Positions 34,606 through 49,182 of a stretch of DNA of 64,000 nt are shown one piece after another (the stretch's first letter is position 1; each line of letters begins with the position of its first letter). Source of the DNA: Patescibacteria group bacterium (GTDB lineage Bacteria > Patescibacteriota > Minisyncoccia > Phycocordibacterales > Phycocordibacteraceae). The DNA is taken from NCBI GenBank assembly GCA_013815345.1, contig JACDGK010000001.1, forward strand, positions 102,434-166,433, given 5' to 3'. Made by a program: the position numbers and the translations under genes. The notes under the pieces are model-generated. The model did not search any database. It saw only the letters and a program-made list of their open reading frames with translations, and was not told where the DNA came from.

Positions 34606-34692
34606 GGAGACGTGGCTGAGTGGTCGAAAGTACCTCACTGCTAACGAGGCAGGGGTTAACGCCCCTCGAGGGTTCGAATCCCTCCGTCTCCG
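34606..34692 (+). tRNA. tRNA-Ser (anticodon GCU)
   Basis: GGAGACG acceptor, D-arm, anticodon loop CUGCUAA, a long variable arm CAGGGGTTAACGCCCCTC, T-arm GAGGG-TTCGAAT-CCCTC, acceptor CGTCTCC, discriminator G. Confidence 0.9.
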
Positions 34693-36209
34693 CAGATAGA
34701 AACTTCGAGTTCGGACAGAGCCGTGCCGCAAAGCGGCGTGGCAGAATGGGCGGACAGAAAATCCCGCCGCGTAGCGGCGAATTGGCTCGGCGTGGGGAAT
34801 CCGAAATGCGGGGATTTGTCACGAACCGAAGGGTTCGTTCCGATTTTTTGCACGAATGATTTGATTTGGTACAAATCATCCGATTGAGACAAAAAATCGG
34901 CTTGTTTCATATCCAAAATCCATTCCCGCAGGGGTTCGACCCGATTCTTTCTCCCGCGTTCAAAATCTTTCTTTTTCTCTTGCAAAGCGGCGAGAGAGCG
35001 CATGAGCACGTCCTTGCGCTTCAAGTACATCTCTTTCGGTATATCGCCATCTAGGTACGCAGATACCAGCTTTTCCATGCGCTCCTCGCTCGCTTTGATA
35101 TTGTCGGAAAGATTTTGAACCTCGCTTTGCGACACCTCAACTTCCTCGCGCTCCCATTCTTTCACTTTCGCCAACATCCAATCCGTATAGCGATCGCAAA
35201 GCGAGATTGTTTGAAGCCGTGCCTTTATTTTGTCGGCAAGGTCGGCCTCGCGGACATACGGTTGCGAGCAGCGGCCGCGTTTCTTGGAACACCGATAGTA
35301 GCGATACTTCGTACCCCAGCGATTGACCGCCCACTGCGCGGAAATCATGCCGCCGCACTCGCCACAGCGGAATAGCCCGACAAGCGGAAAATCATGCTTC
35401 ACCTTGCGCGTGCGCGGCCGCTCCTTGCCCGCCACGACCTTCTGCACGGCTTCAAACAATGCGGGAGTTAGAATCGGCTCAAAGTTTCCATCAAACCATT
35501 CCTGACCGTGCTTCACGAATCCGATATACACGCGATGCGTCAAAAGCCGTTTGATGGAAACTTTGGCAAGTGGCGTTCCGTTTGAAGTCATCACATTCAA
35601 GTCCGCCAAAAATTGCGACAACGAAACGAGAGTATGCGACCCTTTGGCGTATTCTTCGTACGCGAGGCGCACGATACGCGCGTTCGTCGGATGCGGTTCA
35701 ATATTGCGAATACGCGGGTTATTTTGATAGCCAAAGGGTGCGCGATTGAGCCACTCGCCCCGACGCAATTTTTGGCGGACGCCGCGCTTGATATTTTCGG
35801 ACAGATTGTCGCTGTAATATTTAGATTGCCCGAACGCCACTTGCAACATAAATAGTCCCTGCGGGGTCGGTTCAAACCAAAATGTCGGGAAGCGCAAAGA
35901 CACCACCTTACGCGTGTCTACGGCGTATATGATGCGCCCGCCGTCAATGCTGTTGCGAGCCAATCTATCGGGATGCCACGCCAATATGCCCACGCCGTCC
36001 ATTGATTCAATGCGGGCCATCATTTCGCCGTACACCTCGCGCCCCGGTGTCTTTGCGCTTTTCGACTCTTGAAATTCCTCAAGAATTTCAAGATTTTCTT
36101 TACGCGCGATCTCCCGCAACTCAAACAGCTGCGCCTCGATGGACATGACTTGCCGGTCATCGTCCTCAGTGCTCTTACGCGCGTATAGAAAATATTTTGG
36201 CTTGTTCAT
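34656..36209 (-). CDS. large serine recombinase (resolvase/invertase catalytic domain, recombinase domain, zinc ribbon)
   Basis: N-terminal catalytic block YARKSTEDD...SIEAQ (Ser nucleophile), recombinase domain, Cys cluster CGECGG...C. The probable start is the Met at 36209, since the track's extra 33 N-terminal codons lie in the right IR. The frame runs through the left IR and stops only inside the antisense of the tRNA. Confidence 0.85.
   Translation of the reverse strand: MNKPKYFLYARKSTEDDDRQVMSIEAQLFELREIARKENLEILEEFQESKSAKTPGREVYGEMMARIESMDGVGILAWHPDRLARNSIDGGRIIYAVDTRKVVSLRFPTFWFEPTPQGLFMLQVAFGQSKYYSDNLSENIKRGVRQKLRRGEWLNRAPFGYQNNPRIRNIEPHPTNARIVRLAYEEYAKGSHTLVSLSQFLADLNVMTSNGTPLAKVSIKRLLTHRVYIGFVKHGQEWFDGNFEPILTPALFEAVQKVVAGKERPRTRKVKHDFPLVGLFRCGECGGMISAQWAVNRWGTKYRYYRCSKKRGRCSQPYVREADLADKIKARLQTISLCDRYTDWMLAKVKEWEREEVEVSQSEVQNLSDNIKASEERMEKLVSAYLDGDIPKEMYLKRKDVLMRSLAALQEKKKDFERGRKNRVEPLREWILDMKQADFLSQSDDLYQIKSFVQKIGTNPSVRDKSPHFGFPTPSQFAATRRDFLSAHSATPLCGTALSELEVSICGDGGIRTLEGR
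34689..34819. repeat. left 131-bp terminal inverted repeat (begins with CCGCA of the tRNA-Ser 3' end)
   Basis: Direct alignment with the reverse complement of 36234-36364. Confidence 0.85.
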
Positions 36210-36233
36210 ATTAGTTTTTGGATTGAAACAAGA

Positions 36234-36364
36234 GACAAATCCCCGCATTTCGGATTCCCCACGCCGAGCCAATTCGCCGCTTCGCGGCGGCATTTCCTGC
36301 CCGCCCATTCTGCCACGCCGCTTTGCGGCGCGGCTCTGTCCGAACTCGAAGTTTCTATCTGCGG
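36234..36364. repeat. right 131-bp terminal inverted repeat
   Basis: Reverse complement of 34689-34819. It produces mirrored spurious ORFs (36139..36375+ and 34478..34879-). Confidence 0.85.
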
Positions 36365-36587
36365 TGACATATTAGCCTTTGCTCGAACTCACTTCGCACG
36401 CGCCACGTGCGTGGTGGCTTGAGATTGAAGCGTACGCTCCGATCGCGTGGCGACTCTCTGAATCTCGCCACGCGCGGAGTACCGCGCGTCCGCCCTCTCT
36501 TTTGCCGTTTCCCCATTCTTATTTTTTTGCGGGGGGGGATTGAATTTGGAATGGACGGCAGAAACGAGAGATTGGGCTTAAATCTAA

Positions 36588-36629
36588 TAATCCCATTTTG
36601 GGATTATACCATAAAAGGATATATCCTTT
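36588..36629 (+). promoter_or_regulatory. two perfect palindromes upstream of the C-protein gene (candidate C-boxes/operators)
   Basis: TAATCCCATTTTGGGATTA and AAGGATATATCCTT lie immediately upstream of the XRE gene start at 36636. Confidence 0.4.
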
Positions 36630-36635
36630 ATCCAC

Positions 36636-36857
36636 ATGAGCAAGTCCGTTTTCTCGAAAGACTATAAAGAAATCATAGAACGCTTGAAAACGGCGCGTAT
36701 TGAGGCTGGACTTGCACAGCAGGCGGTTGCGGACAAACTCGGTAAACCCCAATCTTTTATCTCAAAAATTGAATCCGGCGAAAGACGGCTTGATGTGGCG
36801 GAGATCAAAAAGTTTTCCGTAATCTACAAAAAAGATGTTTCCTTTTTCATAAAGTGA
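36636..36857 (+). CDS. XRE-family HTH regulator (restriction-modification controller-protein-like)
   Basis: 73 aa. HTH QQAVADKLGKPQSFISKIESGER. It directly precedes the nuclease gene. Confidence 0.75.
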   Translation: MSKSVFSKDYKEIIERLKTARIEAGLAQQAVADKLGKPQSFISKIESGERRLDVAEIKKFSVIYKKDVSFFIK

Positions 36858-36858
36858 T

Positions 36859-37473
36859 ATGGCTAAGAAGGTAACCAATCATCCAAAAACAAGCAAAGGA
36901 GTAGTTTGGCAAAAACTTCTCGACGCTCTTTATGCTGATATCGGCAATGTCGTTTCGAACCAGAAACTTATAAAAGTTTCTGGACAACACAACTATGCTC
37001 GTCGTGTAAGAGAATTACGAGCAGAGGGTTGGGATATTGTTTATAGCGCAAGCCCAACTGGATATATTTTGCGTTCAACTAATAAAACCGCCAAAAACGC
37101 TGATGTTTATATCAATTTTAAATTAAGACAAAAGATTTTAGAAAGGGATCAATATATTTGTCAGCTCTGTGGACATAGGGCGAATGAAAAATACGCTGAT
37201 GGTGAATCAGTAAAGCTTGAAGTTGACCACATCCTTCCTCTCAAACAAGGCGGGAAAACTGTTGAGGAAAACCTTTGGACTTTATGTACTCGTTGTAATG
37301 CTGGGAAGAAATCACTTTTGGATTATCCCGAAACGGTTAAAAATAGGATAATCTCGGTTAATCTTCCAGATGATATAAGAGGAAAACTAAGCGAGTTGTC
37401 TCTCAAGAGGGGTGAGACCATCAACAGCCTCATTTTGGACGCTATACGCAGAGGGATTAAGAAATTGAAATAA
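36859..37473 (+). CDS. HNH-family restriction endonuclease
   Basis: HNH motif CQLCGH...EVDHILP...GG...N...LCTRCN. Starts 2 nt after the C-protein stop. Confidence 0.8.
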   Translation: MAKKVTNHPKTSKGVVWQKLLDALYADIGNVVSNQKLIKVSGQHNYARRVRELRAEGWDIVYSASPTGYILRSTNKTAKNADVYINFKLRQKILERDQYICQLCGHRANEKYADGESVKLEVDHILPLKQGGKTVEENLWTLCTRCNAGKKSLLDYPETVKNRIISVNLPDDIRGKLSELSLKRGETINSLILDAIRRGIKKLK

Positions 37474-38487
37474 TTCTTTTCCTACAGCAAGGGCCAAACG
37501 GCACGGCACGGCGTTACCGATTTGTTTGGCGACTTGGACATTTGAACCCACGAAAACATAATCATCGGGAAATGTTTGTAATCGTGCCGCCTCTCGAATT
37601 GTTATAGGTCTGTGCGCTTCAGGATGCAGATAACAACCTTTCTCCGGTTTAAAAAATTCGGTTCTGATAGTGAGAGATGGTTTATCCCATTCCAATCTAC
37701 CGAAGACATCCGTGGAGCCAGTCTTTTTCCGCTTCCAACAGTCAGGTGTCAATTCCAAAGGCAAATCAAATCTATTGCCTCCAGCCGGAATTGATTTGTA
37801 TCTCTTTAAAGACGTGGGGGTAGGGTTTCTTCCAATGTGCCAATCTTTTCCGGTTGGTTCTAATGGCAAGTCTGCGATCGCATCTTTGACGGTAGCCCAA
37901 GTCTGTAGATGGGCGTTTAAAAGATTAAAATTATCAGCAGAAGTATGTGTTGGTTGAGGGTGATTAGGTATTCCAATCCTACTGCCAAAGATGATGGCCC
38001 GCTTTCGTTTTTGTGGAACTCCGTATTCGACGGCATGTAAGACTTTTTCTCTTACTTCGTATCCTAAATCCTCCGCCATTTTCTTTATGCTGGGGAATTC
38101 ATCACTTGTCAGGAGTTGGGGGACATTTTCCATCAAAAACACCTTCGGTTTAAAGAAAGCAACGAAGCGCATATATTCTCGCCACATTTGATTACGAGGG
38201 TCGTCCTTTTTTTGTTTGCCCAACCGACTGAAACCCTGACATGGCGGCCCCCCTACAATTAAATCAACTGTCCTAGTTCCAATTCGTTTTGAAAACTCTT
38301 CTAAATCCACGGATGTAATATCTCCTTCATGCACAAGCATGTCTTTATGGTTTGCGCGTAAGGTTTCGCAGCTCCAATGATCCCAATCAGTTGCAGCAAG
38401 GGGTTTAAATCCGGCTTGCTGAATTCCGATAGACAAGCCGCCAGCTCCAGCAAACAAGTCAATGAAAGTTGGTTTTTTGTTGCTCAT
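37387..38487 (-). CDS. DNA (cytosine-5)-methyltransferase
   Basis: Motif I FIDLFAGAGG, motif IV GGPPCQGFS, motif VI ENV, motif VIII QKRKRAII. Convergent with the nuclease gene, with an 87-nt 3' overlap. Confidence 0.9.
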   Translation of the reverse strand: MSNKKPTFIDLFAGAGGLSIGIQQAGFKPLAATDWDHWSCETLRANHKDMLVHEGDITSVDLEEFSKRIGTRTVDLIVGGPPCQGFSRLGKQKKDDPRNQMWREYMRFVAFFKPKVFLMENVPQLLTSDEFPSIKKMAEDLGYEVREKVLHAVEYGVPQKRKRAIIFGSRIGIPNHPQPTHTSADNFNLLNAHLQTWATVKDAIADLPLEPTGKDWHIGRNPTPTSLKRYKSIPAGGNRFDLPLELTPDCWKRKKTGSTDVFGRLEWDKPSLTIRTEFFKPEKGCYLHPEAHRPITIREAARLQTFPDDYVFVGSNVQVAKQIGNAVPCRLALAVGKELFQFLNPSAYSVQNEAVDGLTPLERQLA

Positions 38488-38514
38488 AAAATAATAATCC
38501 TATTTTAGCATATA

Positions 38515-38805
38515 TTAAAATTCACTCCTAAGTACACCGACGACCTTTCCTTGTATTTCCACATTAGTTTCATAAAAAGGCTTCATTGTATGGTTTGCCG
38601 GAACAAGTTTGATCCGATTTTTCTCTCTATAAATCTTTTTTAGCGTAACTTCATTTCTGTCCGGCATATACGCGACTGCTTTTTCTCCATCATCAACAGT
38701 CGGCTGTTCTCGCACTATCACAATATCGCCATCCGATATTCCTTCTTCAATCATACTTCTTCCAGATACCTTGAGTGCGTAGTGATTAAACCCTCGCGAA
38801 AGCAT
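38515..38805 (-). CDS. S24-family peptidase domain protein (LexA C-terminal/UmuD'-like) lacking a DNA-binding domain
   Basis: Ser-Lys dyad context KVSGRSM...GDIVIV...K. The in-frame sequence upstream (..PAGGPIEAIRDPEPIEV..) looks like a LexA/UmuD cleavage-site region but has no start codon. Confidence 0.7.
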   Translation of the reverse strand: MLSRGFNHYALKVSGRSMIEEGISDGDIVIVREQPTVDDGEKAVAYMPDRNEVTLKKIYREKNRIKLVPANHTMKPFYETNVEIQGKVVGVLRSEF

Positions 38806-39030
38806 ACTACGTGGAACTTCTATCGGTTCGGGGTCTCTGATTGCCTCAATCGGCCCTCCTGCGGGCGAGAAGACAGCCGAGGCAGAGCGAATCCTTTCCC
38901 CCAGACAGATTGTTTCGCTCTGCCGAGTCCGAATTATTAGTTTTAATCATCAGGATTTTGTCCGAAATACATTCGAACTTTGTCCAATACACACCGCCAA
39001 GAAAACTTAGTATCGGCTGACCCTAGTGCC

Positions 39031-39273
39031 TTACTCTACCTGTACATCTTTGAGCAAATCTATACGCTCAATAATGAGCATCTCCATCTTCTTTATAGAA
39101 TTACAAATGATTCTAGCGAGCTCCTTGTCTTTATCCATTTTTTGCTTCGAAAGAGACACTTCCAAAATCTGCGCGTAGCAATATATCACGCTCAGGTCAT
39201 TCCGAAGATCATGAGCGAGACGAGGGAGTCCATCAGCTTCATTCTTACCTAAATTGGATTGATCATCTTCCAT
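39031..39273 (-). CDS. HisKA-only protein (dimerisation/phosphoacceptor domain with no ATPase)
   Basis: H-box LAHDLRNDLSVI followed by a helical bundle. 80 aa with no HATPase_c. It is in frame with the upstream receiver gene across a single TAG. Confidence 0.6.
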   Translation of the reverse strand: MEDDQSNLGKNEADGLPRLAHDLRNDLSVIYCYAQILEVSLSKQKMDKDKELARIICNSIKKMEMLIIERIDLLKDVQVE

Positions 39274-42078: not shown

Positions 42079-42372
42079 CTATTTAAAATAACTGATCAAC
42101 ATATCCAACCAGTCTTGTTTTGTGACCCGACCATGGGAGGTCTGGTACAGTATTCCCTGGTCATCTGGATTGTCTGATCCTGAACGGTACTGCCAGTACG
42201 TAAAACTTACGCCCTTTTGGTTAAAGAGACTTAATACGTCCCGCACATATTGCATCGCACCTGGGACCGCCGTATAAATGCCGATCTGGTTAGCGTACAC
42301 TGGCACATTATGCGCAGTCCTGAAGCTTGTCGCGCATGAAATCAAGCCACTAAGCCACGTCTGATTCATCAA
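42079..42372 (-). pseudogene. possible C-terminal remnant of a glycoside-hydrolase-like gene
   Basis: 97-aa ORF with a weak resemblance to a GH5-type C-terminus (YWQY, GILY). It has no upstream partner in frame. Confidence 0.3.
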
Positions 42373-49084: not shown

Positions 49085-49158
49085 CCATCCTTAGCTCAGT
49101 TGGTTAGAGCATCGAGCTTATACCTCGAGGGTCCCTGGTTCGAGTCCAGGAGGATGGA
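49085..49158 (+). tRNA. tRNA-Ile with a UAU anticodon
   Basis: CCATCCT acceptor, D-arm GCTC-AGTTGGTTA-GAGC, anticodon arm TCGAG-CTTATAC-CTCGA, T-arm CCTGG-TTCGAGT-CCAGG, discriminator A. Confidence 0.8.
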
Positions 49159-49182
49159 CTACGAAAGTGACGTGTGTGAAAA

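Follow-up and report, generated by a model that had tools for sequence, protein, structure and literature searches.

A protease-only reading frame in a Patescibacteria genome is the 3' remnant of a lexA gene, joined to a truncated structured repeat

A short reading frame in a Patescibacteria genome raises the question of how the protease half of a LexA/UmuD-type protein comes to be encoded by itself, directly upstream of a DNA methyltransferase gene. It lies in a stretch of 64,000 nucleotides, which we refer to as the window. The first-pass annotation, made from the letters of this DNA, described the frame as a bare, UmuD'-like S24 peptidase gene, and suggested a decayed LexA-like repressor, a repressor split from its DNA-binding half, or an SOS-linked control element. 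Much of the plain description was borne out. The ORF scan and Pfam confirmed a 96-residue ORF with the SGRSM block and the S24 fold but without a helix-turn-helix (HTH) domain (PF00717 alone); reading the frame back to a tandem TGA TGA at 38944-38949 gave no ATG, GTG or TTG; and the methyltransferase starts 27 nt downstream, at 38487, on the same strand. On the whole frame of 142 codons, Pfam places Peptidase_S24 at residues 27-135 (E 8.8e-25), so that the match begins at codon 27, which is 5' of the ATG of the ORF. Residues 9-94 of the ORF align with residues 111-198 of E. coli LexA, and the Ser-Lys dyad is kept, with S17 corresponding to Ser119 and K56 to Lys156. The immediate neighbours are Dcm and a HisKA-only ORF, and there is no umuC among them. 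No promoter, operator or Shine-Dalgarno sequence was found ahead of the ATG. The features of the locus are collected in Table 1.

Table 1. Features of the locus, in window coordinates
Feature	Position	Strand	Details
tRNA-Ser	34606-34693	+	ARAGORN and Rfam
Large serine recombinase	34656-36308	-	Resolvase + Recombinase + Zn_ribbon_recom; likely true start near 36209
135-nt inverted repeat bracketing the recombinase	34686-34820 / 36234-36368		96% complementary
Arm-like sequence, variant A' (GCGGTGACATATTAGCC...)	36361-36453	+	Matches the outer part of each inverted arm of locus L066 at 82% identity
C-box (ATCCCATTTTGGGATTATACC...AGGATATATCC) and C gene	36585-36857 (C gene 36636-36857)	+	HTH_3
HNH endonuclease, likely R	36859-37473	+	PF01844/PF14279; convergent with M; 92% identical in L045
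C5 cytosine DNA methyltransferase (M)	37387-38487	-	PF00145, E 4e-74; 88.5% identical to the L045 copy
lexA-M spacer (TATGCTAAAATAGGATTAT...), 27 nt	38488-38514	-	Promoter-like TGnTAAAAT and C-box-like half-site
S24-peptidase ORF, 96 aa	38515-38805	-	ATG start; contains SGRSM
lexA remnant, codons ~93-207 and stop	38515-38859	-	tblastn, blastn, Pfam S24, S119/K156 equivalents
Deletion junction GGAGGG	38854-38859	-	Common to the HP2 loop and lexA codons GGA GGG
Hairpin HP2 of the repeat, 5' half (TCTTCTCGCCCGCA...)	38860-38873	-	3' half missing; window leaves the consensus right after GGAGGG
Hairpin HP1 of the repeat (GGACTCGG-stem-loop-stem-CCTCGGCTG)	38874-38930	-	Complete; pattern scan, covariation
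Element A	38936-39031	-	Core 38953-39000 = GCGGTGTGTATTGGACAAAGTTCGAATGTATTTCGGACAAAATCC; includes TGA TGA

The relatives of the frame leave little ambiguity about its identity. Searched against 5.8 billion proteins, the frame gave 1225 matches, the best of them proteins of 202-208 residues that carry both LexA_DNA_bind and Peptidase_S24, several of which are named LexA by their sources; the best 120 of the 1225 are nearly all LexA proteins of 197-215 residues with PF01726 and PF00717. The query is 97-98% identical to full-length LexA, with the match restricted to the last ~80% of the query and the last ~115 residues of LexA. In the reverse direction, tblastn with two full-length LexA proteins (P0004/P0001) places residues 91/93-207 at 38871/38862-38518 of the window, again at 97-98% identity, and finds no match to the N-terminal 90 residues anywhere in the six frames of the 64 kb. 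At the nucleotide level the fragment is 86-88% identical to the lexA genes of loci L001 and L066 (blastn), and the identity of the window with intact lexA loci starts abruptly at 38862-38874. Among PDB structures, LexA gives the top matches (E 5e-18 to 1e-9), and UmuD scores 6e-8 or weaker. The “bare protease” is the surviving 3' part of an ordinary Patescibacteria lexA gene. The suggestion of a decayed LexA-like repressor was thus the right one, and the UmuD'-like label has to be given up, as LexA structures score better, the close relatives are all LexA, and an N-terminal arm would have no start codon.

What remains is the catalytic core of a LexA orthologue, without the winged helix, the linker or the strand that holds the cleavage site. 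It shares with LexA the C-terminal 115 residues, the S24 domain with its Ser/Lys dyad, orthology to annotated LexA proteins, the 27-nt spacer and the restriction-modification (RM) neighbourhood, but it lacks residues 1 to ~92 with the PF01726 winged helix and the native Ala-Gly cleavage strand, the autoregulated promoter/operator, and any start before Met-112. The native ...PLMGLIAAGG strand is absent from the window, and the PAGG site lies 5' of the only start codon in the remnant. UmuD and UmuD' have the same fold and a similar size, and the product of the fragment would, like UmuD', be without an N-terminal arm; however, the fragment is a LexA orthologue with neither an adjacent umuC nor a translatable arm carrying a cleavage site, and its state comes from truncation and not from processing. 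Partial homology, a defined breakpoint and the loss of promoter and start are what is expected of a 5'-truncated gene, and the fragment shows all three. The feature is therefore a LexA remnant, neither a LexA nor a UmuD, and no new kind of regulator. Two findings that would have spoken for another reading were looked for. There is no stable family of short homologues: the close homologues are full-length LexA, and a recurrent family of 120-residue S24-only proteins (P0076, P0022) was rejected as assembly artefacts, P0076 coming from a heavily fragmented assembly and P0022 lying directly after a 10-N scaffold gap inside lexA. Nor is there a frameshift whose correction could restore the full gene. 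S24-only ORFs should be read as new regulators with caution, as this one is the product of a deletion.

The breakpoint could be mapped to the base by three-way alignments of the window, the canonical repeat (L078, L194) and an intact lexA gene (L066), with 53 copies of the repeat and 11 intact lexA genes as the comparison set. Read along the minus strand, the window matches the repeat consensus through ...CGCCCGCAGGAGGG and then turns into CCGATTGAGGCAATCAGAGACCCC, at a stretch where intact lexA genes read ATCGCCGCCGGAGGGCCGATTGA. The sequence specific to lexA begins at CCG ATT GAG (position 38853), the sequence 5' of 38860 belongs to the repeat (element A, HP1 and an HP2 cut in its loop), and the hexamer GGAGGG between them belongs to both; around it, repeat and lexA are alike at 10 of 13 nt. 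The upstream in-frame translation, ...LGERIRSASAVFSPAGGPIEAIRDPEPIEVPRSM..., had been taken to contain a cleavage-site-like PAGG segment. That segment is chimeric: because the junction is the shared GGAGGG, its Pro-Ala (CCCGCA) comes from the repeat, and only the Gly-Gly codons are common to lexA. The false upstream frame is closed by the TGA TGA of element A. The truncated arrangement is known from two contigs of one population; the one compared with the window, a Logan contig of 16 kb, is 100% identical to it over 12,471 nt and has the same junction with unique sequence on both sides.

The DNA on the far side of the junction belongs to a composite repeat, A-HP1-HP2, that turned out to be widespread. 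The first-pass annotation had noticed an 11-bp inverted repeat here, GGCAGAGCGAA / TTCGCTCTGCC, and it is real and perfect (38881-38891 / 38914-38924), though with a loop of 22 nt and not of 25; it lies within HP1. Scanning metagenome contigs for the pattern GGACTCGG-N17-21-TGGGG-N14-19-CCTCGRCTG gave at least 120 stretches, at least 119 of which also pass a filter for the second hairpin, with 14 distinct stem variants; these counts are of non-independent events, though several unrelated stem sequences exist. Nearly every HP1 copy runs on into HP2, whose consensus ATTTCCCGCCCGCAGGAGGGGTCTGGGGAGGAATGCGGGCGGG is seen in 53 other aligned instances, and the alignment of 54 sequences has compensatory changes at eight pairs of HP1 and three of HP2. 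The inverted repeat is not a chance occurrence, since the same hairpin recurs at least 119 times with other complementary stems. Instances of the composite repeat lie in non-coding contexts, in both orientations and mostly at loci without lexA; as a rule a large serine recombinase is close by. The core of element A (48 nt) is ~98% identical in L013, L019, L039 and L042, where it sits at the outer ends of both inverted arms; a stretch of 56-65 nt (38936-39008) recurs in other lexA loci, and the homologous outer flank is present also in L194. Between A and lexA, the window matches the arms of L037 and L062, whose stems differ and are nevertheless complementary, and the L037 arms contain the same HP1 together with CCCGCAGGAG.

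This distribution bears on the proposal that the inverted repeat is a control element linked to LexA. The hairpin is a member of a repeat family found mostly without lexA, and HP1 as a LexA operator was rejected, being unlike the conserved lexA promoter region described below. Consensus scans for a role of the hairpin as terminator or promoter were uninformative, and the 181-nt region folds with a z-score of only -2.0. With the gathering and E-value thresholds, nothing in Rfam matches the hairpins in the window or in the canonical repeat locus, and no description of the repeat was found in the literature searched. In having conserved flanks and loops with covarying stems, as in sites recognised by their shape, HP1 and HP2 resemble REP/BIME elements and integron attC sites; they differ from these in having no Rfam match and in accompanying a recombinase of the serine type and not one of the tyrosine or HUH type. 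In all 21 loci where a large serine recombinase starts within 700 nt, the repeat lies 215-563 nt from that start and points away from the recombinase into diverse cargo. An abundant structured repeat without an Rfam match, tightly linked to large serine recombinases, may merit a study of its own.

The state from which the remnant was derived can be approached through related loci, of which 62 were recovered from genomes of many Patescibacteria classes. In L001 (a 262-kb JGI contig) and in L066-L070, a gap of 27-28 nt separates a lexA gene of 207 codons from a C5 methyltransferase gene downstream of it, behind which come a convergently oriented restriction gene and a controller gene of the HTH_3 type; L013 has the same gene order (lexA, M, R, C) as L001 and L066. 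A C5 methyltransferase directly follows lexA in about one third of the lexA loci examined. In L045, the very M/R type of the window stands behind a lexA gene that reaches the contig edge (aa 54-207) and so extends past the breakpoint of the window. The synteny between the window and the 262-kb contig is limited to the run from lexA over the spacer and M to C, and the flanks are unrelated. The composite repeat lies 0.9-5 kb upstream of lexA in related genomes. No same-species ancestral locus with an intact lexA was found, and we therefore infer the deletion from these more distant loci. The ancestral state was sought also through relatives of the flanking histidine kinase (HK). L195 has neither the repeat nor lexA. 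L194, with a histidine kinase 72% identical to that of the window, also has the composite repeat, 2.2 kb past its HK and response regulator (RR) genes and oriented as in the window, in a contig that ends inside HP2; its position there speaks for the repeat as the boundary of the variable region. No description of such an arrangement came from the literature searched for LexA, RM systems and Patescibacteria.

Upstream of lexA, most of the ~70 intact loci listed share a conserved region of the form TGTGGATAAC-N5-7-CTTGTTTAGGTTATCTTTAGGTAGTATACT-N7-ATG, in which the direct repeat TTTAGGT-N4-TTTAGGT sits between promoter-like hexamers; it would represent the autoregulated lexA promoter with its LexA box. 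This promoter is absent from the 64-kb window, where matches are at chance level. Some observations on the intact genes may be added here for their own interest. The 130 nt upstream of lexA (for example L001 9870-10000) are almost invariant across classes in most of the ~70 listed loci, and contain in order a perfect DnaA-box-like TGTGGATAA and TTG..TTTAGGT-N4-TTTAGGT..TATACT, ending ~7 nt before the ATG in a leaderless layout. The protein is 85-98% identical across lineages with near-saturated synonymous sites; over the 3' 345 nt of the gene (window, L001, L004, L045, L066, L071 and others), dN/dS is 0.005-0.04 at dS 0.5-1.4. In the closest relatives (L066 8141-9927, L067-L071), an operon of Multi_ubiq, ThiF/E1 (DUF6791) and BubE genes is divergent from lexA; this is a bacterial ubiquitin-like system of the defence type, and unrelated genes hold the same position in other loci.

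Put together, these comparisons suggest the following course of events. In related genomes, lexA is complete (202-208 codons), has a putative promoter of the leaderless type with a direct-repeat operator, and stands upstream of a variable RM cassette; behind the cassette come the conserved C gene, in many cases also a large serine recombinase, and a tRNA gene. In the present genome, a deletion would have brought together lexA codons ~92-93 and the loop of the HP2 copy in the upstream arm, with the shared GGAGGG as the point of fusion, either by illegitimate or microhomology-mediated recombination or by a recombinase acting on a pseudo-site. It would have removed the upstream cassette (in relatives the Bub-like ubiquitin-type operon in L066-L071 and other genes elsewhere), the promoter/operator, and the first ~92 codons with the winged helix and the native cleavage strand. 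An ordinary 5' deletion, and a recent one, has thus probably left the remnant behind, and genes truncated at repeats are in themselves ordinary. The lineage has lost the repressor at a conserved lexA locus, and an SOS-type regulon would be derepressed in it unless a second copy exists.

Whether the fragment still does anything is a separate matter. We consider it very probably a recent remnant without function: it is most likely non-functional because it has no promoter of its own, no start before Met-112 and no DNA binding. A counterpoint is its state of preservation. There are no stops or frameshifts in the 345 nt, and dN/dS against intact genes is 0.007-0.03 at dS 0.55-1.1, comparable to the 0.005-0.04 seen among the intact genes; drift for one tenth of the divergence time would give ~25 replacement changes, and two to four are seen. 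Such values fit a very recent deletion or continued constraint alike. The S24-only protein could then be expressed from Met-112 by read-through of the two-component operon upstream and be functional, as a dominant-negative partner in dimers with a LexA encoded elsewhere, as a sink for RecA*, or as a protease acting in trans without a cleavage site of its own. The ORF does hold the whole catalytic core (E. coli 111-198) with the S119/K156 equivalents, a consensus scan finds no terminator-like site between the HisKA ORF and the fragment, so that read-through from the HK-RR-HisKA operon may occur, and LexA C-terminal fragments were reportedly able to cleave LexA in trans in the work of Kim and Little (Cell 1993). 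We nevertheless regard an expressed and functional fragment as improbable: its ATG has none of the usual signals in front of it, the upstream frame is non-coding repeat, the arrangement is seen in one population only while the other short homologues are artefacts, and a recent deletion predicts a dN/dS just as low.

The idea of a split repressor takes the form of an inversion or translocation that moved the HTH half elsewhere, beside the other half of HP2, with halves that might still cooperate. In its favour, there are many inverted repeats at the locus as well as a serine recombinase gene, and the 64-kb window is part of a contig that measures at least 193 kb. But the window shows no N-terminal (HTH) half of lexA in any of its six frames and no reciprocal junction with the missing half of HP2, and neither A, HP1 nor HP2 occurs in it a second time; moreover, no inversion of flanked segments was seen, the cargo having one orientation in all examined lexA loci with a downstream recombinase. 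A split gene is thus very unlikely. Still harder to credit is a UmuD-type protein that starts at a non-canonical codon (ATT, ATA or CTG) and has the size of UmuD and a PAGG cleavage site. The frame of 142 codons comes close to the 139 residues of UmuD, the Pfam match starts from codon 27, and UmuD structures are detectable homologues; yet ~28 codons at its 5' end consist of the A-HP1-HP2 repeat, of which at least 119 instances are seen outside coding sequence and in both orientations, the nearest relatives are LexA, and no umuC lies beside the frame. We give equally little credence to a junction made by chimeric assembly at the repeat. Several related contigs do break inside these repeats, but an overlap of six bases is too short to misdirect a k-mer assembler, and the separately recorded Logan contig has the identical junction. 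The non-functional remnant remains the reading that we prefer.

The genes downstream of the remnant have the make-up of a Type II RM system controlled by a C protein, of which Esp1396I and PvuII are examples: judged by sequence, there are an M gene, an R gene, an HTH controller and C-boxes upstream of C. As in those systems, R is preceded by a small HTH_3 controller gene with palindromic C-boxes, M is read from the opposite strand, and the M promoter region contains a half-site that resembles a box. The difference is that here the C gene and the spacer are fixed, M and R are exchanged among genomes, and the module adjoins lexA. Among the loci listed, 16 that differ in their M/R genes have C genes that are 80-92% identical and boxes that are near-identical and palindromic; across loci in general the C gene is 50-92% identical, whereas the M and R genes in between differ. 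The 27-nt spacer is conserved whichever methyltransferase follows. It forms a direct repeat (D4) with the box upstream of the C gene, and a promoter-like match extends from 38518 to 38491; it resembles an extended -10 with half a C-box, and would serve as the M promoter. Since this putative promoter and its C-box lie in the spacer and the last lexA codons, the methyltransferase should be unaffected by the truncation.

It is worth adding that two elements, the spacer and the C gene together with its boxes (window 38488-38514 and 36585-36625), are kept in L001, L004, L006, L008-L015 and L066 while M and R are swapped for unrelated types, the exchanged types comprising C5 or N4/N6 methylases and HindVP, HinfI-like or HNH enzymes. 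The run from the lexA-M spacer to the C gene looks like a site for swapping cassettes between fixed regulatory ends. That a gene as strongly constrained as lexA adjoins a hot spot for the exchange of RM and other defence cassettes may be worth pursuing separately.

On the other side of the RM genes, the window has a large serine recombinase, a tRNA and an inverted pair, a layout found also in L019, L037, L038, L042, L050 and L059; the recombinase of other lexA loci is next to a tRNA, most often tRNA-Ser. The inverted repeats that bracket the recombinase gene are 92-148 nt long and near-perfect, one arm abuts the 3' end of the tRNA, and the recombinase ORF reads through into the bracketing arm. 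In addition, the entire segment of 4.6-8.2 kb with lexA and its neighbours lies between near-perfect inverted repeats of 100-230 nt (L013 3842-4047/9004-9209, L042, L039, L019, L037, L050, L066 and others), whose arms are 90-100% identical in any one genome, and several contigs end inside them. No description of such a layout was found in the literature searched on serine recombinases and inverted repeats. With tRNA-associated large-serine-recombinase islands, SCC/ccr and the Mu G segment with Gin, the locus has in common a recombinase by the 3' end of a tRNA and variable cargo of accessory or defence genes between repeated sites. Unlike in SCC/ccr or Mu G/Gin, the boundaries here are inverted arms of 50-230 nt made of A, HP1 and HP2, and a second inverted pair brackets the recombinase itself.

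This brings us to a broader suggestion, which we offer tentatively and consider rather doubtful: the truncation may be the footprint of an undescribed Patescibacteria system for handling cassettes, consisting of the large serine recombinase by the tRNA 3' end and the A-HP1-HP2 repeat. The repeat always has its back to the recombinase and faces cargo that is variable and in many cases related to defence, and that is frequently closed by the repeat as a long inverted copy. If the suggestion were true, the pair of repeat and recombinase would exchange, invert or delete cargo around lexA, the join of HP2 to GGAGGG as a pseudo-site would be a by-product of the recombinase, and the S24 core could even persist as a trans-acting or dominant-negative LexA fragment. 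The long inverted repeats around both the cargo and the recombinase gene may merit separate study in any case.

A few further observations concern the surroundings of the remnant. Between 36500 and 42200 the G+C content of the window is 0.37-0.45, against ~0.50 in the flanks. This stretch takes in the HK-RR-HisKA operon and the lexA remnant as well as the RM genes; at its far end, near 42200, no copy of the repeat was found. The HisKA-only ORF of 80 residues (39031-39273, minus strand) follows the response regulator and has the H-box LAHDLRNDL. An ORF of 81 residues stands at the same position in L195; instead of being a fragment, the ORF may thus encode a small phosphotransfer protein that is conserved. 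Finally, ARAGORN identifies at 49085-49159 (plus strand) a tRNA-Ile with the anticodon TAT, which is uncommon in bacteria.
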